Below, piece after piece: positions 7,549-21,012 of a stretch of DNA of 21,012 nt (position 1 is the first letter of the stretch; every line of letters begins with the position of its first letter). The stretch covers positions 1 through 21,012 of the forward strand of contig CAJLBR010000017.1 in NCBI GenBank assembly GCA_905204915.1, read 5' to 3'. The stretch is from an uncultured Clostridium sp. GTDB lineage: Bacteria; Bacillota; Clostridia; TANB77; CAG-465. The notes beneath the pieces are model-generated. The model made no database searches. It was not told the DNA's origin and saw only the letters and a program-made list of their open reading frames with translations. The position numbers and the translations under genes are program-made.

Positions 7549-8151
7549 TTATAATTCATTTAATATTTCTAAAATTTTAAAAGAATACTCTTTATTTGGG
7601 ACATTTTCATTATCATAAATATTAGAAATGCCTGGTAAAATAGAATCTAAATTAGATATATTTTTAATAGACTCTTCGTTTGGAAATATTAGAGACCAAA
7701 TATTTTTGCCCTCTGCATTGCCAAGATTTATTCTAATGCTATTATAGCATCCCTGTGGCATAGTAAGTTCTATGCTATCTTTTTTATCATAGTATATTTT
7801 ACCAATATCTATTGAACTTGAATAATCCATATTATTTTCATTTAGTACTTTGTTTGTAATTTTTGCTATATCATTGGTATTTTTTTCTAATATATTTAAT
7901 GTTTCTTTAGAAGACGTATTATTATCTATATTTAATGATTTTATATAATCATTTACACTTTCATATATTTTTAATTTGACTAATTGATCTTGGATAGAAT
8001 TACTGTTTGCAACAACATGTATCCTTGTTAGCTGATCTTTAGTCTCTTCTGATTTTAATAATTTAACAGTAATATAAACATTTAACATTATAAAACAAAA
8101 GGTAAATATTGCAAGACATATATTTTTTTGATTAAATTTTACTTCTTTCAT
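7549..8151 (-). CDS. spoIIR: Stage II sporulation protein R (SpoIIR)
   Basis: N-terminal TM/signal segment followed by the RIHVVANSNSIQDQLVKLKI motif typical of SpoIIR; size is about 200 aa. I prefer the ATG at 8151 because the GTG at 8160 lies inside an AGGTGA RBS. The GTG at 8160 remains an alternative start. Confidence 0.82.
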   Translation of the reverse strand: MKEVKFNQKNICLAIFTFCFIMLNVYITVKLLKSEETKDQLTRIHVVANSNSIQDQLVKLKIYESVNDYIKSLNIDNNTSSKETLNILEKNTNDIAKITNKVLNENNMDYSSSIDIGKIYYDKKDSIELTMPQGCYNSIRINLGNAEGKNIWSLIFPNEESIKNISNLDSILPGISNIYDNENVPNKEYSFKILEILNEL

Positions 8152-8310
8152 TTTTATCACCTGAGATTAGTATTTGGTAAAAAATAATAAATATACCATA
8201 TTATGGAAAAATGTTTAAGAAAAAAAGAGTGAATATTGTAGAAAAAAATTATGTATATTTTAACATTGCTTTTTTCTACAAAAGTAGCTAATTTATGGTA
8301 AAAATCGAAA

Positions 8311-8803: not shown

Positions 8804-8832
8804 TTGACATAATACATAAATTGTGTTAAAAT
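8804..8832 (+). promoter_or_regulatory. Sigma-A-type promoter of the higher-GC ORFan cassette
   Basis: TTGACA (8804-8809), a 17-nt spacer ending in TGT, then TAAAAT (8827-8832). It shares the 14-mer TGTTAAAATGTTAG with the dtxR-family promoter downstream. Confidence 0.55.
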
Positions 8833-8889
8833 GTTAGCGCACGTGATAGTGTAGAATCCATTATGACTATTAAAGGAGGACATTTTAAC

Positions 8890-9273
8890 ATGAAGAAAGA
8901 AAGCATTAAGTTGTCGATAAGAAAGGCTGCTAAGTCACTCGAACAGTTCGTCGATTTCTGTGACGAAAAGTGTACAGCGGTAAAAGAAAAGCTTTATGAG
9001 ACGAGGTTTTGCGTTGACTACCCAATCGGCACTGAGTTCACAAGTCCAAAGGGAAAAACCTGCAAGATCAAAGAGTACATCTTTAACAGCGATGGCTGCT
9101 TTGTTGTTGTTGAAAAAGGTGACGGCAAGAGATCTAAGCGAATGAGTATGACTGAATTTGAATCCAAGTATACTCTGAAAAACAACCCAGAAGACGATGA
9201 TCCGGCAGCGGCGGAAGCTGACACTATCAATGAAGAATCTGATGATTCTGATGATGACAGCGACGAAAGCTAA
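8890..9273 (+). CDS. ORFan protein, 127 aa, with a polyacidic C-terminal tail and foreign (higher-GC) composition
   Basis: GGAGG (8875-8879) lies 10 nt upstream of ATG 8890, so the track's start at 8863 is probably too early. Hand GC counts are 24/60 (8941-9000) and 29/60 (9001-9060), against 11/60 in the native neighbour (8401-8460). The tail reads PEDDDPAAAEADTINEESDDSDDDSDES. The gene has its own promoter and terminator. Confidence 0.7.
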   Translation: MKKESIKLSIRKAAKSLEQFVDFCDEKCTAVKEKLYETRFCVDYPIGTEFTSPKGKTCKIKEYIFNSDGCFVVVEKGDGKRSKRMSMTEFESKYTLKNNPEDDDPAAAEADTINEESDDSDDDSDES

Positions 9274-12617: not shown

Positions 12618-12656
12618 ATAAGGAAGTAGTTGTATGACTATTTCCTTATTTTATAT
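12618..12656 (+). terminator. Probable rho-independent terminator after the oxidoreductase gene
   Basis: ATAAGGAA (12618-12625) pairs with TTCCTTAT (12642-12649), and inner TAGT/ACTA pairing extends the stem. It is followed by a T-rich tract. Confidence 0.55.
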
Positions 12657-12725
12657 TATTACTTGTTTTTTTATGTAAAATATGATATATTAAATAAGAT
12701 TTTGTTTAACATTAAAGGAGATATT

Positions 12726-13667
12726 ATGGAAGAAAATTATGTTGTTACGTCTTACATTAATCCAGATTTAGATGGAATTTCATGTATGTATGCATACAAA
12801 GAATTTATAGAAAAGTGTGGTAGAAAATCTAATTATTATATAAGTGGAGTACCCAAAAAAGAGGTAAGTATAGTATGTGATATGTTTGGAATATCACTAA
12901 ATCCAATAGAAAAGATTGGAAAACATGACAATATAATTTTAGTTGATACCAATTCTGATTTATATATAGAAGATTCAATAATTAAAGAAAATGTAACAGA
13001 AATTATTGATCATCATGTAAAATCTGAAAGTTCAAAAAAATTTGTAAATGCTAATCTTACAATTGAACTTATTGGAGCAGCAGCAACATTGGTGGGAGAG
13101 AGATTTATGGAATATTCTCTTGATATATCTAATAGTTCGGCAATACTTTTATATTATGGAATTGTTTCTAATACAATAAATTTTAAGAGTAAAAATACAA
13201 CTAAAAAAGATAAAGAAGTTGCAAAGTGGCTTAAATCAAAATGCTCAAAAATAGATGATTCAAAAATAGAAGAGATATTTAGAAAAAAATCAATTATTGA
13301 AAAAGGATCAATGAAAAATGAAATTGAAGCATCAAATCCAGTTCCAATAAATGGTAGCAAAAATGTAATTATTGGTCAGCTTGAGATAGTAGAAATTGAT
13401 AAGTTTTTAGATGAAAATGAAGATATAATTAAACAGATTCTTGAAGAGGAAAATAAGAGTAAAAATCCTGACTTTATTTTTTGTAATATTATAGATATAC
13501 TTAATGGAAAAAGTACCCTATATTCATCAGATGAAAGTACAAAGCAAGCATTAAATAATGAATTTAATTACTTATTTGAAGATAACATATGTAATTTGAA
13601 CAGTTTAATAACAAGAAAAGAACTATTTAAGAAACTAAAAAATCATTATAATATTAGGAGGGGATAA
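12726..13667 (+). CDS. DHH-family phosphoesterase (PpaC/NrnA-like fold)
   Basis: DHH motifs are present: NPDLDGISC (motif I), LVDTNS (motif II/III) and IIDHH (motif III/DHH). ATG 12726 follows AAAGGAGA. The 32-codon upstream extension in the track (12630) reads through the terminator/promoter region and is rejected. Confidence 0.8.
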   Translation: MEENYVVTSYINPDLDGISCMYAYKEFIEKCGRKSNYYISGVPKKEVSIVCDMFGISLNPIEKIGKHDNIILVDTNSDLYIEDSIIKENVTEIIDHHVKSESSKKFVNANLTIELIGAAATLVGERFMEYSLDISNSSAILLYYGIVSNTINFKSKNTTKKDKEVAKWLKSKCSKIDDSKIEEIFRKKSIIEKGSMKNEIEASNPVPINGSKNVIIGQLEIVEIDKFLDENEDIIKQILEEENKSKNPDFIFCNIIDILNGKSTLYSSDESTKQALNNEFNYLFEDNICNLNSLITRKELFKKLKNHYNIRRG

Positions 13668-13669
13668 GT

Positions 13670-14377
13670 ATGCCAGCTTGGGGAATGCATTTAAAAACTG
13701 CCAAAAAATTAAATGAATATTTAAAACTTAATGAATACAAGTTTTATTTTGGAAATGTTATGGTAGATGCAGAAAGACATGTAGTGCATGATTTATCTGT
13801 TGTAGTTTCGTATGATGATTCCCATTATGCTAAATTGCAAAATGTAAATGGAATCATGATAAAGCTACCAGATTATGAAAGATTCATAGAAGAAAATTAT
13901 CAGAACTTAAGTAATCCAGTTGTTCTAGGATATCTTACACATTTAATGACAGACTTTTATTATAATAGATTAACTTTCGGTCAAAAGTTTTTATCAGATG
14001 GTATGGGAAAATCTATAGGAATAAAGCTTAATAATGGAACCGATAAAATATGTGATAAGGAAACAATAAGAATATTAAAACAAACAGATTTTGATACTTA
14101 TTCAAGAGAATTGTATTCAAAAGAAGATGTTTTAATAGATGAAAATAAGAAAGATGATATTCTAAAAGCATGTAAAGATATAAAAAATATTAAATATAAT
14201 GGAGAAGATGTATTAAAGATAATTAATTTCGTAAATAATATAAAAAATAATTATGATAAAAGAAAAGATGAAAAAATATGTTATAAGGTATTTACCAAAG
14301 AAGAATTTGATTATAACTTTAACAAATGTGTTGAATTTATATTAGATAATTTAAAAAGTCATAAAATAATAGAATAA
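13670..14377 (+). CDS. Hypothetical protein, possibly a zinc-dependent phospholipase C-like metal hydrolase
   Basis: The N-terminal PAWGMHL...GNVMVDAERH...SHY...GYLTHLMTDFYYN pattern of His/Asp ligands resembles the Zn_dep_PLPC family. The start is tightly coupled to the DHH gene (AGGAGGGGATAAGTATG). The functional call is weak. Confidence 0.5.
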   Translation: MPAWGMHLKTAKKLNEYLKLNEYKFYFGNVMVDAERHVVHDLSVVVSYDDSHYAKLQNVNGIMIKLPDYERFIEENYQNLSNPVVLGYLTHLMTDFYYNRLTFGQKFLSDGMGKSIGIKLNNGTDKICDKETIRILKQTDFDTYSRELYSKEDVLIDENKKDDILKACKDIKNIKYNGEDVLKIINFVNNIKNNYDKRKDEKICYKVFTKEEFDYNFNKCVEFILDNLKSHKIIE

Positions 14378-14396
14378 TATAGTTTTTATTTATAAT

Positions 14397-14430
14397 ATAA
14401 AAAAAGCCTACATGAAAAAACATGTAGGCT
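14397..14430 (-). terminator. Rho-independent terminator of paralog A (minus-strand orientation)
   Basis: The stem pairs AGCCTACATG (14405-14414) with CATGTAGGCT (14421-14430) around an A6 loop. The A-run on the plus strand at 14399-14405 becomes the T-tail on the minus strand. The 24-nt core is identical to that at 14949-14972. Confidence 0.8.
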
Positions 14431-14442
14431 CTACTTTAAAGA

Positions 14443-14814
14443 TTAATACCTGTCATCATAAGGCCATTCCTGACCGTTTGCTTCAGCTTCTTCTTGGCTG
14501 CCATATTGATAATCTTCAGGTGGAATCAAACCATCGATCTCATCAAGTACATTATCCATACAAACTGGATTACATTTTGCAGCCCTTGTTATTTGAGTAG
14601 TGCTTAAATTTGCAGCATTGTTTCCCTTCGTAGATAAAAACTCAAAGTTTTTAATGACTGCCTCCTTGTCAAAATTCCGGCTGTGAGCAAGTTTGTTATA
14701 GGCTACTTCAAAATGAGTGCCAAGCGATTCTGGAATTTTTTCAGGTGCAGAATCACCAGATAACAAGCCAGAGAGCTTAGACTCACTCGGGTTTAAAGGA
14801 AATTCAGTATACAT
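14443..14814 (-). CDS. ORFan acidic protein, 123 aa (paralog A), with a C-terminal CxxxC...IPxE..QY..QE.AEANGQ module
   Basis: GGGAGG RBS lies 10 nt upstream of the ATG (14814). Hand GC count is 28/60 for 14461-14520. It is colinear with the 15011-15382 product: KLAHSRNFDKEAV aligns with DLAHQKDYDEEAI, and CNPVCMDNVLDEIDGLIPPEDYQYGSQEEAEANGQ aligns with CHDDCTDITYDTINGYIPDENCQYDNQEDAEANGQ. Confidence 0.75.
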   Translation of the reverse strand: MYTEFPLNPSESKLSGLLSGDSAPEKIPESLGTHFEVAYNKLAHSRNFDKEAVIKNFEFLSTKGNNAANLSTTQITRAAKCNPVCMDNVLDEIDGLIPPEDYQYGSQEEAEANGQEWPYDDRY

Positions 14815-14873
14815 GTAAAAATTACCTCCCTAAATAAATTATTATTTAAAATTTTCGAATTGCTTCTAGAAAA

Positions 14874-14902
14874 ATTGTAACACTTTTTCTGGAAAATGTC
14901 AA
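14874..14902 (-). promoter_or_regulatory. Sigma-A-type promoter of paralog A
   Basis: On the minus strand: TTGACA (14902-14897), a 17-nt spacer, then TACAAT (14879-14874). The flanking blocks TAACACTTTTT and AATGTCAACTATT (plus-strand reading) are shared with the paralog B promoter. Confidence 0.6.
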
Positions 14903-14940
14903 CTATTGTTCTAAATATACTACAAAATAGTGAAAAATAT

Positions 14941-14972
14941 AAAAAAGAGCCTACATGAAAAAACATGTAGGC
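14941..14972 (-). terminator. Rho-independent terminator of paralog B (minus-strand orientation)
   Basis: The stem pairs GCCTACATG (14949-14957) with CATGTAGGC (14964-14972) around an A6 loop. The plus-strand A6 at 14941-14946 gives the minus-strand T-tail. Confidence 0.8.
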
Positions 14973-15010
14973 GTTGTTTAAAAGTATTAATAACTTTGAT
15001 ATAAATGAAA

Positions 15011-15382
15011 TTAACAAAATTTTTGGCCGTTTGCTTCAGCATCCTCCTGATTATCGTATTGACAGTTCTCATCTGGAATATAACCATTAATTGTATCATA
15101 CGTAATGTCTGTGCAGTCATCATGGCACTGGAGCATTCTCTTGATCTCATCAGAATTTAAATCTGCAAGCATATCTATTTGCATGCTATCCAGCTTTCTG
15201 GCTATGGCCTCCTCATCATAATCTTTTTGGTGAGCAAGATCATCAATTGCCTCCTTAATAGCTTCACAAGTTTCTTCTGAAATGCTGTCAGATAAGCCTT
15301 CAAGTGAGATGGCAAGGGCAGAAGTGCTGTCTGTTACTGCAAGAAGTGTTCCGGCATTTTCTTTTTTAATAATTTCTAACAT
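15011..15382 (-). CDS. ORFan strongly acidic protein, 123 aa (paralog B), with the same C-terminal module
   Basis: GGAGGG RBS lies upstream of ATG 15382. Hand GC count is 27/60 for 15181-15240. It has the same length as paralog A and shares a 14-nt identity, CCGTTTGCTTCAGC (15027-15040 and 14473-14486), encoding AEANG. Confidence 0.75.
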   Translation of the reverse strand: MLEIIKKENAGTLLAVTDSTSALAISLEGLSDSISEETCEAIKEAIDDLAHQKDYDEEAIARKLDSMQIDMLADLNSDEIKRMLQCHDDCTDITYDTINGYIPDENCQYDNQEDAEANGQKFC

Positions 15383-15434
15383 AGTAAACCCTCCAAAAAA
15401 ATAATTATTTTTTTATAATTTCTTACACAGTGGT

Positions 15435-15463
15435 ATTTTAACACTTTTTAAGTTCAATGTCAA
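15435..15463 (-). promoter_or_regulatory. Sigma-A-type promoter of paralog B
   Basis: On the minus strand: TTGACA (15463-15458), a 17-nt spacer, then TAAAAT (15440-15435). Confidence 0.6.
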
Positions 15464-15481
15464 CTATTATTTTAGTAAATG

Positions 15482-15510
15482 TTGACATAAGATTTAAAAA
15501 ATGATATAAT
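15482..15510 (+). promoter_or_regulatory. Sigma-A-type promoter of the 343-aa ORFan, back to back with the paralog B promoter
   Basis: TTGACA (15482-15487), a 17-nt spacer, then TATAAT (15505-15510). The two opposed -35 boxes form a 7-bp inverted repeat, TGTCAAC (15458-15464) and GTTGACA (15481-15487). Confidence 0.6.
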
Positions 15511-15561
15511 TTGGTGAAATTATAAATACTTTTATTGTGAGTACAAGAAAGGATGAATTTT

Positions 15562-16593
15562 ATGAGTAACATTGTAAAACGTGAGGAAATACTGGATTCT
15601 TTGATAATTTCCGAGTATACAAAATTGGAAGATCTTCTCAAAAAATCTGTTGAAAATGGATTTATTGATGATGTGGGTGCAAAAAATATTGCACTAGGAT
15701 TTTTTTCAGTTTGTCTTGAAAATGTAAAAGAATATAAAGAAGAAGTTGCATATGTTGACGAAAAAGAAGCAGAGCAGCTGATACAAAATTATTTAAAAAT
15801 AATAAGTGTTTACTTATCTTGCTTTAAAAATTCTGAAGCATTTGAAATGCTAATTACCAAAAGTCCGGCAGAAATTTTTAAGAATGCTATTAAGTATTAT
15901 GAAAAAGCAAATCTTGAAGCATATAATAATCTAGATTATGCACTTTCCATTTTTTTACCAATAAAAAACAGAGAATCAATTTTGCTTATCAGACGGTTTA
16001 TGCTAATGTACAAGTTTTTTGCGGCTAAGCTTACAGAGAGCGATATTGATTCTGTATCAGTAAATTCAGATGTCGTTGTGTATGAAAACATTGATGTAAC
16101 AATAAATGATCTGGTATATTCTGATATTAAAGATATGGCAAGTGCATCAGGATTTGTAAACTATGTAAACGTGGCAAAAAATCTCTTCTATGAGGCAAAT
16201 ATCATTAAAGCTTTTGATACTGAAGATGTAATTAAGCTAATAAATAATACTCCAAGAAAAATTGAAATTGAAAGTGGAATTTTAGTAGATGAGCCAATCT
16301 CTAATATTACATGGACAGTTTTAAATCAGTTTATGGTATCTTCTTATTATCACAAGGTTCCAAGTGAACCACTGATATTAACTGAAGGCGAAGCCAAAGT
16401 TGCAGCTTGGGAGATATTTAAAGACTTGATTGAACCAGATGAGTTTTTTGAAAATTTGGAAAATACCTCAATTTATTTAAGTTACGATGATGAAACAAAA
16501 GAATTTATAAAAAGCTTATTCCATAAATTAAAATATGCAATGGAAAATCTAAGAGAAAGAAAAATAAATAATATGTTAATAATTAACGAATGA
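15562..16593 (+). CDS. ORFan protein, 343 aa, soluble and acidic, with no recognisable motif
   Basis: Long uninterrupted ORF. ATG 15562 lies 8 nt after AAAGGA, and the in-frame ATG at 15553 overlaps that RBS. GC is intermediate (25/60 at 16021-16080, 17/60 at 15901-15960). The gene has its own promoter and terminator. Confidence 0.7.
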   Translation: MSNIVKREEILDSLIISEYTKLEDLLKKSVENGFIDDVGAKNIALGFFSVCLENVKEYKEEVAYVDEKEAEQLIQNYLKIISVYLSCFKNSEAFEMLITKSPAEIFKNAIKYYEKANLEAYNNLDYALSIFLPIKNRESILLIRRFMLMYKFFAAKLTESDIDSVSVNSDVVVYENIDVTINDLVYSDIKDMASASGFVNYVNVAKNLFYEANIIKAFDTEDVIKLINNTPRKIEIESGILVDEPISNITWTVLNQFMVSSYYHKVPSEPLILTEGEAKVAAWEIFKDLIEPDEFFENLENTSIYLSYDDETKEFIKSLFHKLKYAMENLRERKINNMLIINE

Positions 16594-16598
16594 ATAAC

Positions 16599-16630
16599 AA
16601 GTGGCCAAAATTTTTTGGCCACTTTTATAT
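16599..16630 (+). terminator. Rho-independent terminator of the 343-aa ORFan
   Basis: GTGGCC (16601-16606) pairs with GGCCAC (16617-16622), extended by A/T pairs, and is followed by TTTTATATT. Confidence 0.7.
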
Positions 16631-17095: not shown

Positions 17096-17124
17096 TTGAC
17101 ATAATTAGCTTTGTATGATATAAT
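17096..17124 (+). promoter_or_regulatory. Sigma-A-type promoter of the 159-aa ORFan
   Basis: TTGACA (17096-17101), a 17-nt spacer, then TATAAT (17119-17124). Confidence 0.6.
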
Positions 17125-17172
17125 CTGTTGGAAAAAATAAGAACACCTAAAATAATTTGGAGGTTAGAAGCT

Positions 17173-17652
17173 ATGATTGAAATTAAAAGAGCAACATTTA
17201 CTGGACTTTCTTATCCGGAATATTCTAAAGAAAAGGGATATTACACAACAGATGTAAAAATTTTTGATAAAGAGTTTAATACTATCTATCATGATGAGGA
17301 CTACTTTATTGGAAATACTCTGAATGAGGCAATTTTGAAATTTGATAAATTGAAAAGAGATTTTTGGCGAGTTGTTGGCAAGCCGAATGAAAGAGTTAAA
17401 AATTATCTTTATATTAATAAATCGGCATGGGTAATGTTGATAGAAGAAAAGCCAGTGGCTTTGGTCCCGGGAGATAAATCTAAAGATTTGTGCTTGAGTC
17501 TTGACAATTTTGAAGTATTTTCAAGCAGAAGTAAATACTTAGAGGCCTTCAGAGATATGAAAAAGAAGGAGATACTTGAAGAACTTGAAAACATTAGGAA
17601 AGCAGAAAAAAAGCTTGTGCAAAGGCTTAACGATTTAAATGAATTAGTATGA
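17173..17652 (+). CDS. ORFan protein, 159 aa, with a C-terminal coiled-coil-like tail
   Basis: GGAGG (17159-17163) lies 9 nt upstream of ATG 17173. The track's TTG start at 17128 sits immediately downstream of the -10 box (17119-17124), in the predicted 5' UTR, and is rejected. Hand GC count is 24/60 at 17441-17500. The C-terminus KKKEILEELENIRKAEKKLVQRLNDLNELV is heptad-like. Confidence 0.7.
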   Translation: MIEIKRATFTGLSYPEYSKEKGYYTTDVKIFDKEFNTIYHDEDYFIGNTLNEAILKFDKLKRDFWRVVGKPNERVKNYLYINKSAWVMLIEEKPVALVPGDKSKDLCLSLDNFEVFSSRSKYLEAFRDMKKKEILEELENIRKAEKKLVQRLNDLNELV

Positions 17653-17662
17653 TTCAACTTAA

Positions 17663-17690
17663 AGCTGTCATAATTTTATGACGGCTTTTT
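17663..17690 (+). terminator. Rho-independent terminator of the 159-aa ORFan
   Basis: AGCTGTCAT (17663-17671) pairs with ATGACGGCT (17678-17686), with one G-T wobble, and is followed by TTTT. Confidence 0.7.
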
Positions 17691-17753
17691 CATGCCTTTT
17701 ACACAATATAATCATTGGTTTTCCAAAATAACAAGTTATAATATGACTGTGAG

Positions 17754-18473
17754 GTGAAGTTGTTGAAAAGTGAATTTTTTAGACGAATAGAAAAAAAGTA
17801 CAAATTGACAAAGGAAGAATACGAAAAAATGAAATTATTAATAGATAGAGAATTTAACGAAGATAAACATGGAATGAGCACAATTTGCAATTTGTATTTT
17901 GATAGTGATGATTTTATATTAGTAAGAAAATCTATAGAAAAGCCAATATACAAAGAAAAAGTTAGATTAAGAAGTTATCAAGTACCAAGTTATGATTCAA
18001 ATGTATATTTAGAAATAAAGAAAAAGTATAAAGGAATTGTAAATAAGAGAAGAATTGTCATTAGTACTGAAGATATGAAAAAATACCTTAATGATGAATG
18101 TGAGGTTAAAGGTCAGGTATTTAAAGAAATTGATTATATCTTTAAAAGATATGATTTAAAACCCAAAGTATTTATAGCGTATGATAGAATGGCATATTTT
18201 AGTAAAGAAAATCCAAATTTGAGAATAACATTTGATTTTAATATTAGATATAGAACAGAGGATGTTGGGCTAGAAAATGGGGATGCAGGCCATCTACTTT
18301 TAAATGACAGTGAATGTATAATGGAAATAAAAACTTTAGATAACCTTCCATATGAATTTGCAAGATATTTATCTACTTTAAATGTTTATCCAACAACATT
18401 CTCAAAATATGGAAATGTATATAAAAAGATTAATAAGATTAATGAAAAAAATAAGGAGGAGTTTTATGTTTGA
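17754..18473 (+). CDS. VTC-domain (polyphosphate polymerase-like, CYTH/triphosphate-tunnel fold) protein
   Basis: RIEKKYKL near the N-terminus and alternating basic/acidic beta-strand motifs (VRLRSY, YLEIKKKYKGIVNKRR, RITFD, IMEIK) are typical of bacterial VTC-domain proteins. The start is ambiguous between GTG 17754, TTG 17760 and TTG 17763, because GAGG lies at 17751-17754. Confidence 0.78.
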   Translation: MKLLKSEFFRRIEKKYKLTKEEYEKMKLLIDREFNEDKHGMSTICNLYFDSDDFILVRKSIEKPIYKEKVRLRSYQVPSYDSNVYLEIKKKYKGIVNKRRIVISTEDMKKYLNDECEVKGQVFKEIDYIFKRYDLKPKVFIAYDRMAYFSKENPNLRITFDFNIRYRTEDVGLENGDAGHLLLNDSECIMEIKTLDNLPYEFARYLSTLNVYPTTFSKYGNVYKKINKINEKNKEEFYV

Positions 18474-19137
18474 AAGTATATTTAGTAGTGTAAGTAGTGG
18501 AGTGAGTATAAAAACAGCACTTATTGCAATACTTGCATCAATTGTTCTTGGTATAAGTATTGCTATATTATATATGAAATCTGGTAAATATAATAAAAAT
18601 TTTGTAATAACACTTGCGGTATTACCGCTTCTTGTTCAAGTTATAATTATGATGGTAAATGGCAATTTAGGAACTTCCGTAGCAGTTCTTGGAGCTTTTA
18701 GCTTGGTTAGATTCAGATCAACACCAGGAAATTCTAGGGATATAATTAGTATATTTTTTGCAATGGCAGTAGGGCTTGCAACAGGAATGGGACACATTTT
18801 GTTTGCTGTTACAGTAACTGTTATAGTTGGTTTATTAATATTTATACTTAATAAATTAAAGATATTTAATCAAGATAAAAATGAGAGAAAATTAAAAATT
18901 TTAATACCAGAGGATCTTGATTATACGGAAATTTTTGATGATATTTTTGATAAATATTTGGAAAAAGTTGAAGTGGAAAAGGTAAAAACTACAAATATGG
19001 GAAGTATGTACGAAATAGTTTATAATGTTATTTTAAAGGATAATAAATTGCAAAAAGAATTTATGGATAATTTAAGAATGAGAAATGGAAATTTAAATGT
19101 ATCACTATTTAGAGAAGAAAAATTAGAAACTTTATAA
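18466..19137 (+). CDS. DUF4956-family integral membrane protein
   Basis: Multiple TM helices and the conserved FSLVRFRS...D..F.F motif. ATG 18466 follows AAGGAGG and overlaps the VTC stop (ATGTTTGA). The track's upstream extension to 18382 is rejected. Confidence 0.8.
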   Translation: MFESIFSSVSSGVSIKTALIAILASIVLGISIAILYMKSGKYNKNFVITLAVLPLLVQVIIMMVNGNLGTSVAVLGAFSLVRFRSTPGNSRDIISIFFAMAVGLATGMGHILFAVTVTVIVGLLIFILNKLKIFNQDKNERKLKILIPEDLDYTEIFDDIFDKYLEKVEVEKVKTTNMGSMYEIVYNVILKDNKLQKEFMDNLRMRNGNLNVSLFREEKLETL

Positions 19138-19149
19138 GGAGAGTAAGTT

Positions 19150-21012
19150 ATGAATAAGAAAAGTATATGTATAATTTTTATAGGAGTAGCTGTTTTACTT
19201 ACAGGTATAATTCTAACACTCGTAAACAAAGATAGTACTTCTAATGGTGAAAATAGTGAAACTTCAAAAACAGCTACTATAAGCGATAATGTAGTAAAGA
19301 GCGTAGACTATGATAGTGATGAAGAAGAATATGAGTATAATATAGATACTTATATAAATTTAGAATCTGATAATGTTAGTATTGAAGGGAGTGGTGCAAG
19401 TAATTCAGATGGAGTAATAACAATAAATAAAGCTGGAAATTATAGCATTTCTGGTACCTTAAATAATGGTAAAATAATAGTAGATACAGATAAAAATAGT
19501 GTCGTAAAAATACTTTTAAATGGTGTTAATATTACATTTAATGATAGTTCTCCAATATTTGTAAAAGGTGCTAAGAAGTGTATTTTAACTTTAAAAGAAG
19601 GAACTGAAAGTACACTTGAAGATGCTTCTAGCTATACATATGAAAATAGTGATGAAGATGAACCAAGCGCTACAATATTTAGTAAGCAAGATTTAATAAT
19701 TAATGGAAAAGGGACATTAAAATTAAAAGCAAACTATAATGATGCTATATCTTCAAATGATGCTTTAAGAATTTTTGACACTAATATAGAAATTAATTCT
19801 GTAGATGACGGTATAAGAGGTAAAGATTACGTATATATAAAAAACAGTAACATAAAAGTAGAAGCTAGTGGAGATGGAATAAAATCAACTAATACAAATA
19901 GTGAAGACGTGGGATATGTAATTATTACTGATTCAACAGTAAATATAACTTCAGGAACAGATGGAATTGATGCTAAGGGTTCTATATACATAAATGGTGG
20001 AAAATTTAATATAGTAACAGGAGGTTCAAGTAGCAATTCACAAGATAAAGATACTTGGGGAAAATGGGATAAAAATGAATTTGGAAAAGAAAACATGAAA
20101 CCTCAGGATCCTGAAAGTAGCAATGATTCAAACGATACTCCAAGTGCTAAGGGTATAAAATCTGCTACAAATATTTTAATAGATGATGGAGAGTTTAACA
20201 TTGATTCATCTGATGATAGCATACATTCTAATAATACTATAAAAATAGAGAATGGAACATATGAAATAAGTTCTGGCGATGACGGAATACATGCAGATTC
20301 CGTACTTACAATAAATGATGGAAGTATTAATATAAAAAAGAGTTATGAAGGCTGTGAAAGTGCAGTTATAAATATAAATTGTGGAGATATTAATATTGTA
20401 TCTTCTGATGATGGTATTAATGTTGCAGGTGGAAAAGATTCTTCATCTGAAATGGGAAGACCAGGACAGAATAATTTTTCACAAACTAACAATTATTCAT
20501 TAAATATAAATGGTGGAAATATAGAAGTAGATGCTAAAGGAGATGGTTTAGATAGTAATGGAAATATTTATATAAATGGAGGTGATATAAAAGTATTTGG
20601 GCCAACAGATGATGGAAATGGAGCTTTAGACTATGACGGAACATGTGAGATTACTGGCGGAAATTTAGTAGCAATTGGAAGTTCAGGTATGATGCAAGCG
20701 CCATCTAGTAGTTCATCTCAATATTCATTAGTTTATGTCTTATCTTCAAATTATTCCGAAAACTCTGTAATAACTATAAAAGATTCTAGTGGGGATGAAG
20801 TTTTAAATATTACAGCTAAAAAACTATATAAATCTGTAGTATTTTCTAGTAGTAAAATAAAAAAAGATGAGACATATACAATTTATATAGATGGTACTGA
20901 ATCAGGTTCGTTAACGGCTAGTAGTATTACTACAACAAATGGAAAAACAAATAATATGGGAATGCCTTCACCAAATGATGGTGGTAATGGACCAGGAGGG
21001 CCAAGAAAATAA
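19150..21012 (+). CDS. Membrane-anchored/secreted Cthe_2159-like carbohydrate-binding beta-helix protein (620 aa)
   Basis: N-terminal anchor ICIIFIGVAVLLTGIILTLV. About 20-25-aa periodic repeats contain DDGI/GDGI/DGID (DDGIRGKD, GDGIKST, TDGIDAKG, DDSIHSN, DDGIHAD, DDGINVAG, GDGLDSNG), typical of this family and of its position after VTC/DUF4956 genes. Stop TAA is at the last base of the window. Confidence 0.72.
   Translation: MNKKSICIIFIGVAVLLTGIILTLVNKDSTSNGENSETSKTATISDNVVKSVDYDSDEEEYEYNIDTYINLESDNVSIEGSGASNSDGVITINKAGNYSISGTLNNGKIIVDTDKNSVVKILLNGVNITFNDSSPIFVKGAKKCILTLKEGTESTLEDASSYTYENSDEDEPSATIFSKQDLIINGKGTLKLKANYNDAISSNDALRIFDTNIEINSVDDGIRGKDYVYIKNSNIKVEASGDGIKSTNTNSEDVGYVIITDSTVNITSGTDGIDAKGSIYINGGKFNIVTGGSSSNSQDKDTWGKWDKNEFGKENMKPQDPESSNDSNDTPSAKGIKSATNILIDDGEFNIDSSDDSIHSNNTIKIENGTYEISSGDDGIHADSVLTINDGSINIKKSYEGCESAVININCGDINIVSSDDGINVAGGKDSSSEMGRPGQNNFSQTNNYSLNINGGNIEVDAKGDGLDSNGNIYINGGDIKVFGPTDDGNGALDYDGTCEITGGNLVAIGSSGMMQAPSSSSSQYSLVYVLSSNYSENSVITIKDSSGDEVLNITAKKLYKSVVFSSSKIKKDETYTIYIDGTESGSLTASSITTTNGKTNNMGMPSPNDGGNGPGGPRK

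Follow-up and report, generated by a model that had tools for sequence, protein, structure and literature searches.

Two neighbouring genes of identical length, each ending in nearly the same terminator hairpin and encoding the same C-terminal motif, raise the question of how they came to be so alike at one end and so diverged over the rest of their length, and of what their products might do. The genes lie in a 21,012-nt stretch of DNA from an uncultured Clostridium sp. (contig CAJLBR010000017.1 of assembly GCA_905204915.1), which is referred to below as the window. A first-pass annotation, made from the letters alone, had described them as a duplicated cassette of promoter, open reading frame (ORF) and terminator in which the N-terminal coding halves diverged and the regulatory elements and a cysteine-containing C-terminal module were kept. 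The pair of exactly 372-nt minus-strand ORFs was found as described, and the two genes are called paralog A and paralog B. We hold the anatomy and evolution of the locus, as set out in the following paragraphs, with high confidence. The parts of the two units are as follows.

14443..14814, minus strand: coding sequence of paralog A, 372 nt, 123 aa plus stop, isoelectric point (pI) 4.4 (ORF and translation)
14825..14830, minus strand: Shine-Dalgarno site of A, GGGAGG, 10 nt upstream of the ATG (read from the sequence)
14874..14902, minus strand: predicted promoter of A, TTGACA, 17 nt, TACAAT, TG extension, 11/12 matches
14396..14432, minus strand: predicted intrinsic terminator of A, 12-bp stem, 6-nt loop, T-run, -19.3 kcal/mol
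15011..15382, minus strand: coding sequence of paralog B, 372 nt, 123 aa plus stop, pI 4.05 (ORF and translation)
15389..15394, minus strand: Shine-Dalgarno site of B, GGAGGG, 6 nt upstream of the ATG (read from the sequence)
15435..15463, minus strand: predicted promoter of B, TTGACA, 17 nt, TAAAAT, TG extension, 11/12 matches
14940..14972, minus strand: predicted intrinsic terminator of B, 9-bp stem, 6-nt loop, T-run, -16.3 kcal/mol

Both cassettes are thus predicted to have a sigma-A promoter and an intrinsic terminator of their own. The promoter blocks noted earlier (14878-14888 and 15439-15449; 14895-14907 and 15456-15468) are present and correspond to sigma-A-type extended -10 elements (TGTTACAAT and TGTTAAAAT) and -35 elements (TTGACA) with 17-nt spacers. 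The 24-nt terminator core GCCTACATGAAAAAACATGTAGGC, also reported earlier, occurs exactly twice, at 14406-14429 and 14949-14972 (543 bp apart), with 0 occurrences expected from 100 shuffles, and each hairpin sits directly after the stop codon of its gene. The reading frame is kept in orthologues of other assemblies, in which the ratio of nonsynonymous to synonymous substitution rates (dN/dS) is 0.26-0.51 overall, and in a second species ORF length and motif are kept although synonymous sites differ. Near-consensus promoters, Shine-Dalgarno sites, terminators and orthologue dN/dS below 1 all support the prediction that A and B are two real, separately transcribed protein-coding genes. A scan of positions 14200-15700 against Rfam gave no RNA family, the best matches (E=0.4-0.9) being far under the gathering scores. 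Antisense ORFs over the C-terminal coding parts (14412-14600 and 15005-15160) were considered and rejected; they lie in different frames, show no relation to each other, and have no counterpart over the corresponding part of locus L003, which carries the second-species orthologue.

Comparison of the two products by BLASTP showed 35% identity across 117 residues (E=2e-20). In pairwise alignment of the C-terminal modules on their own, the similarity was significant (z=17.5, a score reached by 0 of 2000 shuffles), as the first-pass annotation had expected. The N-terminal halves, which it had called barely alignable, were also significantly similar on their own (z=9.7, 0/2000 shuffles). A and B are homologous end to end, which argues for uneven divergence and against the earlier picture of a conserved domain fused to unrelated, variable specificity regions; on the alignments, they are full-length paralogs that diverged unevenly. 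The duplication of a complete unit consisting of promoter, ribosome-binding site, ORF and terminator, approximately 520-530 bp long and present twice in tandem, was borne out. No third, degenerate copy of the module was detected in the window.

Conservation differs sharply along the unit. Between the A and B cassettes, nucleotide identity is 82% in the promoter, 59% in the 5′ untranslated region (UTR), 56-58% in the coding sequence and 37% in the 3′ UTR, and the terminators match at 30 of 31 positions; synonymous sites between the two genes are saturated. Because of this saturation, the near-identity of the terminators is explained better by gene conversion than by selection, and the earlier idea that the regulatory elements had been kept since the duplication gives way to gene conversion at the terminator. 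The A and B promoters share about 13 positions beyond the general consensus, including aatag, tt and aaaaagtgt; the rest of their likeness reflects the general consensus of the organism, since 7 sites in the window have at least 11/12 matches together with the TG extension. The terminator hairpin was also considered as a dispersed repeat, which was rejected: in the window it occurs twice, in related loci it was found only downstream of cassette copies, and none was found in viral contigs.

Alleles from other strains show how the 3′ ends behave. Strains L001 and L002 carry a 128-aa allele of the B gene, designated B′. In a sliding-window comparison (L001), B′ matches A at 83-97% identity over its last ~120 nt, which run from the QY codons up to the hairpin, whereas the upstream sequence is at most 60% identical. 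Compared with B of the window, B′ has a synonymous divergence (dS) of 0.06-0.15 in the N-terminal part and 0.85 in the C-terminal part. The contrast in dS and the sharp jump in identity therefore indicate a gene-conversion or recombination tract and a mosaic B′ allele. Strain L002 has a single gene, in which the B′ body is joined to the downstream flank of A; one copy has been lost exactly between the 3′ repeats, and this junction is the expected product of unequal crossing-over between homogenised 3′ repeats. A further mosaic allele, P0029, is present in the population. Taken together, the alleles and identities argue that the tandem duplication of the complete unit is old and that gene conversion periodically homogenises its terminator and 3′ end. 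Direct repeats kept alike in this way allow unequal crossing-over, from which strains with one or two copies and mosaic alleles arise. The single-copy orthologue in L003 is closer to B than to A in its N-terminal part (score 74 versus 41) and closer to A than to B in its tail (score 142 versus 91); therefore, each duplicate has kept a different half nearer to the ancestral form, B the N-terminus and A the tail.

The part of the proteins under most constraint was localised in a seven-sequence family alignment, referred to as A4. It corresponds to the following segments.

14446..14574, minus strand: C-terminal conserved module of A, residues 81-123 (alignment A4; dN/dS 0.07-0.10; predicted local distance difference test, pLDDT, 71-78)
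15014..15127, minus strand: C-terminal conserved module of B, residues 86-123, tail end KFC (alignment A4)

The positions D-x-I-x-G-x-x-P-x-E-x-x-Q-Y-x3-E-x-A-E-A-N-G-Q are invariant in A4, with W or F following in all but one position. Orthologues of A in L001, L005 and L006 are 93-98% identical to it, with dN/dS of 0.33-0.51; by region, dN/dS among A orthologues is 0.07-0.10 in the C-terminal module versus 0.56-0.75 in the N-terminal part, so that the view of the C-terminal ~40 residues as the most constrained part is upheld. The shared block CCGTTTGCTTCAGC inside the ORFs is the reverse complement of the codons for A-E-A-N-G. At the nucleotide level, A and B are 58% identical in the C-terminal coding part and 56% in the N-terminal part, and the second-species orthologue, P0005 of locus L003, has the same motif in different codons. 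Since the tail nucleotides are only 58% identical and the codons of P0005 differ, it is selection on the protein that conserves the tail. The substitution pattern argues for strong purifying selection on the last ~35 residues (D-x-I-x-G-x-x-P-x-E-x-x-QY-x3-E-x-AEANGQ-x-W/F).

The family is small and restricted in distribution. Word-index searches of 5.8 billion proteins found only 4 family clusters, and an exhaustive hidden Markov model (HMM) search of 1.84 billion representatives found 3 (A-type, B-type and P0005), all of which occupy one syntenic slot in two human-gut clostridial lineages, both of low GC and spore-forming. The exact A protein is present on 32 contigs in public data and A-type variants on ~130; the exact B protein is present on 104 contigs and in 203 index blocks, including chromosomal contigs of up to 851 kb. 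Some of the records carry names that point to the human gut, among them L006 ('human gut metagenome') and L013 (a Hadza-Nepal sample). Searches of all family members against Pfam, NCBIfam, PHROGs and PADLOC gave sub-threshold noise only. A sequence profile search of PDB gave nothing relevant, and Foldseek against PDB and against BFVD gave nothing significant for the family. No match to the family was found in INPHARED by tblastn, and the GTDB genome collection had no match either to the A/B family or to the 343-aa neighbour described below. Whether the motif can be placed in a characterised family, a possibility raised beforehand, was examined by profile, PDB and hhalign searches, and no such family emerged. 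When judged by eye, the EF-hand loop, the DSL motif of ACP, the WxG motif of WXG100 proteins and the SQELD signature of Spo0E did not fit the invariant positions. As far as these searches reach, A and B belong to an undescribed, lineage-restricted orphan family without detectable relatives.

Paralog B contains 30 D/E and 9 K/R residues. The maximum Kyte-Doolittle value over 19-residue windows is 0.36 for A and 1.12 for B, and no signal peptide, membrane segment or hydrophobic segment was detected in either protein in these windows; they are therefore read as cytoplasmic. The AlphaFold2 (AF2) model of A, built from a 6-sequence alignment, had a mean pLDDT of 66, with a disordered N-terminus (residues 1-22), helices at residues 29-43, 50-63, 72-80, 83-93 and 107-112, and a pLDDT of 71-78 in the tail. 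The family is accordingly modelled as small, acidic, non-secreted and mostly helical proteins.

The window has 27.8% GC and encodes LigA, Mfd, PrsA, SpoIIR and SufBC-like proteins, and it is therefore assigned to the chromosome of a low-GC spore-former. In every locus, the small gene or genes lie between a convergent operon, comprising a DHH-family gene and a gene for a 235-aa protein, and a divergent gene of 343/346 aa followed by RusA. In the window, the DHH-family gene (12630-13667) and the 235-aa gene (13670-14377) are 2 nt apart and probably form one operon. This operon is convergent with paralog A, the terminator hairpin of the latter being situated 26 nt past the 235-aa stop codon; the 235-aa protein has a weak Zn-dependent phospholipase C-like match (E=0.0035). 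The divergent neighbour on the other side, considered below as a candidate partner of A and B, has the following parts.

15482..16624, plus strand: divergent neighbour as a whole (promoter, 343/346-aa ORF, hairpin terminator)
15482-15510, plus strand: predicted promoter of the 343-aa gene, 12/12 matches, extended -10
15553/15562-16593, plus strand: 343/346-aa orphan ORF, reported as 343 aa by gene callers
16599-16624: predicted hairpin terminator of the 343-aa gene, bidirectional

The true start codon of this gene is probably the ATG at 15562. Its plus-strand promoter stands back-to-back with that of B, and the -35 boxes of the two promoters form an inverted repeat, ATGTCAAC...GTTGACAT, at 15456-15488. 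The gene is syntenic in L001, L002, L003, L005 and L009-L014. The encoded protein has only two homologue clusters, with a phyletic range of the same two lineages as the A/B family, and no Pfam, NCBIfam or PADLOC match; its AF2 model (pLDDT 45) was too poor for a fold search. Between the lineages, identity is 45% for the 343-aa protein and 33-41% for the small protein, versus 88% for RusA, 74% for VTC and 70% for the 235-aa protein. Within the species, flanking proteins are 98-100% identical, A 93% and B 86%. The G+C content at third codon positions (GC3) is 0.30-0.32 in A and B, 0.20 in the 343-aa gene and 0.10-0.15 in housekeeping genes, and the same pattern was seen in L003.

Several other features of the surroundings were observed. 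The 159/174-aa ORF after RusA (17096-17652) has a 12/12 promoter (TTGACA-17-TATAAT with TG extension, 17096-17124), a GC3 of 0.27 and no family match. With this ORF counted, RusA is surrounded by four monocistronic uncharacterised genes (343-aa, B, A and 159/174-aa) in which GC3 is raised and the promoter is close to consensus; of these, A/B and the 343-aa protein were the ones tested for orphan status. To the right of RusA, strains differ (L001 6314-8213 compared with 17128-21012 of the window): in L001, four small unannotated ORFs take the place of the 174-aa, VTC, DUF4956 and Cthe_2159 genes, and in L005 the Cthe_2159 region is rearranged. The region around the paralogs is a hotspot of strain variation. 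Farther away, the ORF at 8863-9273 encodes a 136-aa protein (pI 4.8) with five cysteines and an Asp/Ser-rich acidic tail; it has a GC3 of 0.45, its own promoter (TTGACA-17-TGnTAAAAT, 8804-8832) and no family match, and at its position the sister strain L001 has different genes (127 aa and 427 aa).

As to function, A and B might be abundant cytoplasmic helical adaptors or regulators. In this proposal the invariant acidic-aromatic tail would be a functional surface contacting a conserved partner, and the faster-evolving helical body would be under looser or diversifying constraint. The likeliest partner would be the divergently transcribed 343-aa orphan, the best candidate because it has the same phyletic range, shares the back-to-back promoter region and evolves at a similar rate; the GC3 raised in both A/B and the 343-aa gene was also counted in favour of this idea. 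Such a mechanism, with an adaptor or regulator acting through its tail on the 343-aa protein, is possible but doubtful, and the statement as a whole, with anatomy, evolution and mechanism combined, falls a little short of an even chance. Several points weigh against the proposal. No homologue or structural match backs any particular function, and the idea of a partner comes solely from adjacency and co-occurrence in two lineages. The AF2 models are weak for both A and the 343-aa protein, with the pLDDT values of 66 and 45 given above. The tail pLDDT of 71-78 may mean that the tail is packed onto the helical body as part of the fold rather than free to dock as a peptide. Both promoter strength and protein abundance are predictions from consensus matches only, and the raised GC3, accompanied by rare G-ending codons (CGG, AGG, CCG and TCG), fits a foreign origin better than a high-expression bias.

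Other explanations of the locus were weighed against the same evidence. The 343-aa gene and its small neighbours could be a new two-gene conflict module, of defence or anti-defence, in which the 343-aa protein is the effector or sensor and the small proteins are regulators, decoys or immunity-like partners. Such a module would account for the rapid evolution of A/B and the 343-aa protein relative to their neighbours (A and B at the within-species identities given above), the variation between one and two copies with mosaic alleles, and the atypical codon usage reflected in GC3; a RusA gene and a strain-variable region adjoin, and B-type members match GapS6a weakly (E=0.008). However, that match scores 16 bits against a cut-off of 90 and involves B-type sequences only, and none of the genes at the locus is recognised by PADLOC. 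Neither a TPR nor a PIN domain was matched in the 343-aa protein, in contrast to GapS6b (bioRxiv 10.1101/2023.03.28.534373), the genes are monocistronic and divergent rather than in an operon, and the locus is fixed in a conserved chromosomal slot of two species, not on a mobile island; neither family occurs in viral contigs, save for one unsupported motif match. A conflict module is therefore considered unlikely. A broader version, in which 343-aa, B and A are three consecutive monocistronic orphan genes forming an undescribed lineage-private module, each gene having a near-consensus promoter, a terminator of its own and atypical codon usage, with the tail docking on the 343-aa protein or a conserved host machine and the fast-evolving helical bodies giving alternative specificities, would amount to a new conflict or regulatory system of gut clostridia, and is rated as distinctly unlikely. 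Tandem small genes with a conserved C-terminal peptide and strong promoters of their own would also suit the precursor of a pheromone or of a ribosomally made peptide, in which the C-terminal stretch would be the core or recognition sequence. Such precursors usually have a conserved leader and a variable core. In A and B the layout is reversed, the N-terminal part being variable and the C-terminal part conserved; a signal peptide or hydrophobic N-terminus is lacking, no maturase, radical-SAM enzyme, protease, transporter, exporter or receptor family was detected in the flanking genes, and 123 aa with a modelled folded helical body are unlike typical precursors, which makes this reading extremely improbable.

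Two further proposals concern the conserved tail itself. The conserved CxxxC metal-binding or redox domain envisaged in the first-pass annotation draws on the C-x3-C that opens the module, complete in both window copies, and on the five cysteines of B. In A4, however, no cysteine column is invariant: in place of the first Cys of C-x3-C, P0002 and P0004 have Ser and P0003 has Phe, and P0005 has Ser in place of the second, so that the pattern is intact in the two window copies only and is not a pattern of the family. The remaining cysteines (NCQY, ITCD and the terminal C) vary within the population, the terminal Cys being R in variants, and two cysteines without conserved His or Cys partners are insufficient for a standard Zn site; a metal-binding site is thus not supported by A4 or the population variants and is highly improbable. 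The alternative that the module derives from the C-terminal part of the phage Mu F/SPP1 gp7 head-morphogenesis domain (MuF), as a domesticated phage fragment, arose from a viral-contig scan seeded with the exact word QE[ED]AEAN. The IMG/VR contig L004, identical to L007, encodes right after the portal gene a 209-aa protein that contains PGCLPDGHDDDAGPPAPDVYGIQEDAEANGQIWSLDE, 45% identical to residues 82-121 of A, and carries YGIQEDAEANGQIWSLDE. This protein is a diverged MuF, and the match lies on the canonical A-N-x-G-x-Y segment of the motif (C-x2-C ... A-N-x-G-x-Y/W ... H-P-x-C-R-C, as used here); the atypical GC3 of A/B is also compatible with this origin. Nevertheless, when the 7 residues of the seed were masked, the module HMM gave E=38 over 377 candidate stretches, and the profile search aligned only 17 residues. 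Even with E values of up to 10 allowed, none of the 7 family members matched Pfam Phage_Mu_F (PF04233), and hhalign comparisons with 9 canonical MuF domains gave probabilities of 0.5-0.8% (E 0.07-0.12, for a single comparison). The second half-motif, HPxCRC, is absent, A and B ending before it, and the upstream cysteines are not conserved. Only a single such MuF variant was found, in a phage of 67% GC, the tblastn search of INPHARED found nothing, and the window has no portal or capsid genes, A and B not being in a prophage. MuF membership is unsupported after the masking, Pfam and hhalign controls, and this origin is very unlikely.

The preferred reading thus remains that of an old tandem pair of small, mostly helical proteins with a constrained tail and homogenised 3′ ends. 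The locus is a clean, well-bounded example of lineage-specific gene evolution after tandem duplication, with asymmetric divergence, 3′ homogenisation and copy loss, and it draws attention to two unnamed protein families, that of A/B and that of the 343-aa neighbour, present on hundreds of metagenome contigs. Should the tail turn out to dock as a peptide onto a conserved partner, the pair would represent a new small-protein module of regulation or conflict. At present the value is mainly descriptive; duplication with partial gene conversion is a familiar kind of event, and the protein family itself is new.

Among known systems, three-helix-bundle domains (the Z-domain of protein A; UBA/CUE-like domains) gave the best, insignificant Foldseek matches in PDB, on the helical body, where faint Pfam matches to CUE, UBA_N4BP1_C and SAM_SMF also fall; with E of at least 0.9 and template-modelling scores of at most 0.4, and none having the conserved tail, the resemblance is a generic helical one. 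GapS6a (NCBIfam NF047935) is likewise a small protein of ~100 aa beside a larger helical protein, and B-type members match its profile weakly at 16.2 bits (cut-off 90; E=0.008-0.01). The match is confined to near-identical B-type sequences, A-type members and the L003 orthologue having none, and the A/B and 343-aa genes differ in being divergent rather than in an operon. GapS6b, the partner in the GAPS6 anti-phage system, has TPR and PINc domains (bioRxiv 10.1101/2023.03.28.534373); membership of A/B in GapS6a was rejected on the score and on the lack of a TPR or PIN match in the 343-aa neighbour.

With Phage Mu F/SPP1 gp7 (PF04233), 17 residues, Y-x-x-Q-E-(E/D)-A-E-A-N-G-Q-x-W-x-x-D, are shared in one diverged member, that of L004, whereas the neighbours of A/B are the DHH/235-aa operon, the 343-aa orphan and RusA. 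The L004 gene lies at 7566-8195 of IMGVR_UViG_3300041955_001933, which is identical to Ga0181527_1000155; in its product, the C-x2-C ... A-N-x-G segment is replaced by an acidic, proline-rich insertion of ~27 residues ending in QEDAEANGQIW. It is the only sequence outside the family with the tail motif, and the similarity is statistically unsupported.

The locus also resembles tandem paralogs under concerted evolution. As in such pairs, the units are arranged head to tail, the homogenised 3′ tract is sharply bounded, one strain has a unit deleted between the repeats, and mosaic alleles occur; on the sequence evidence, A and B are tandem duplicates of this kind. They differ in that homogenisation reaches only the ends: it covers the terminator and, in part of the strains, extends over the final ~20 codons. 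Elsewhere A and B are saturated at synonymous sites, and the duplicates are therefore taken to be old and functionally distinct, not the result of a recent amplification.

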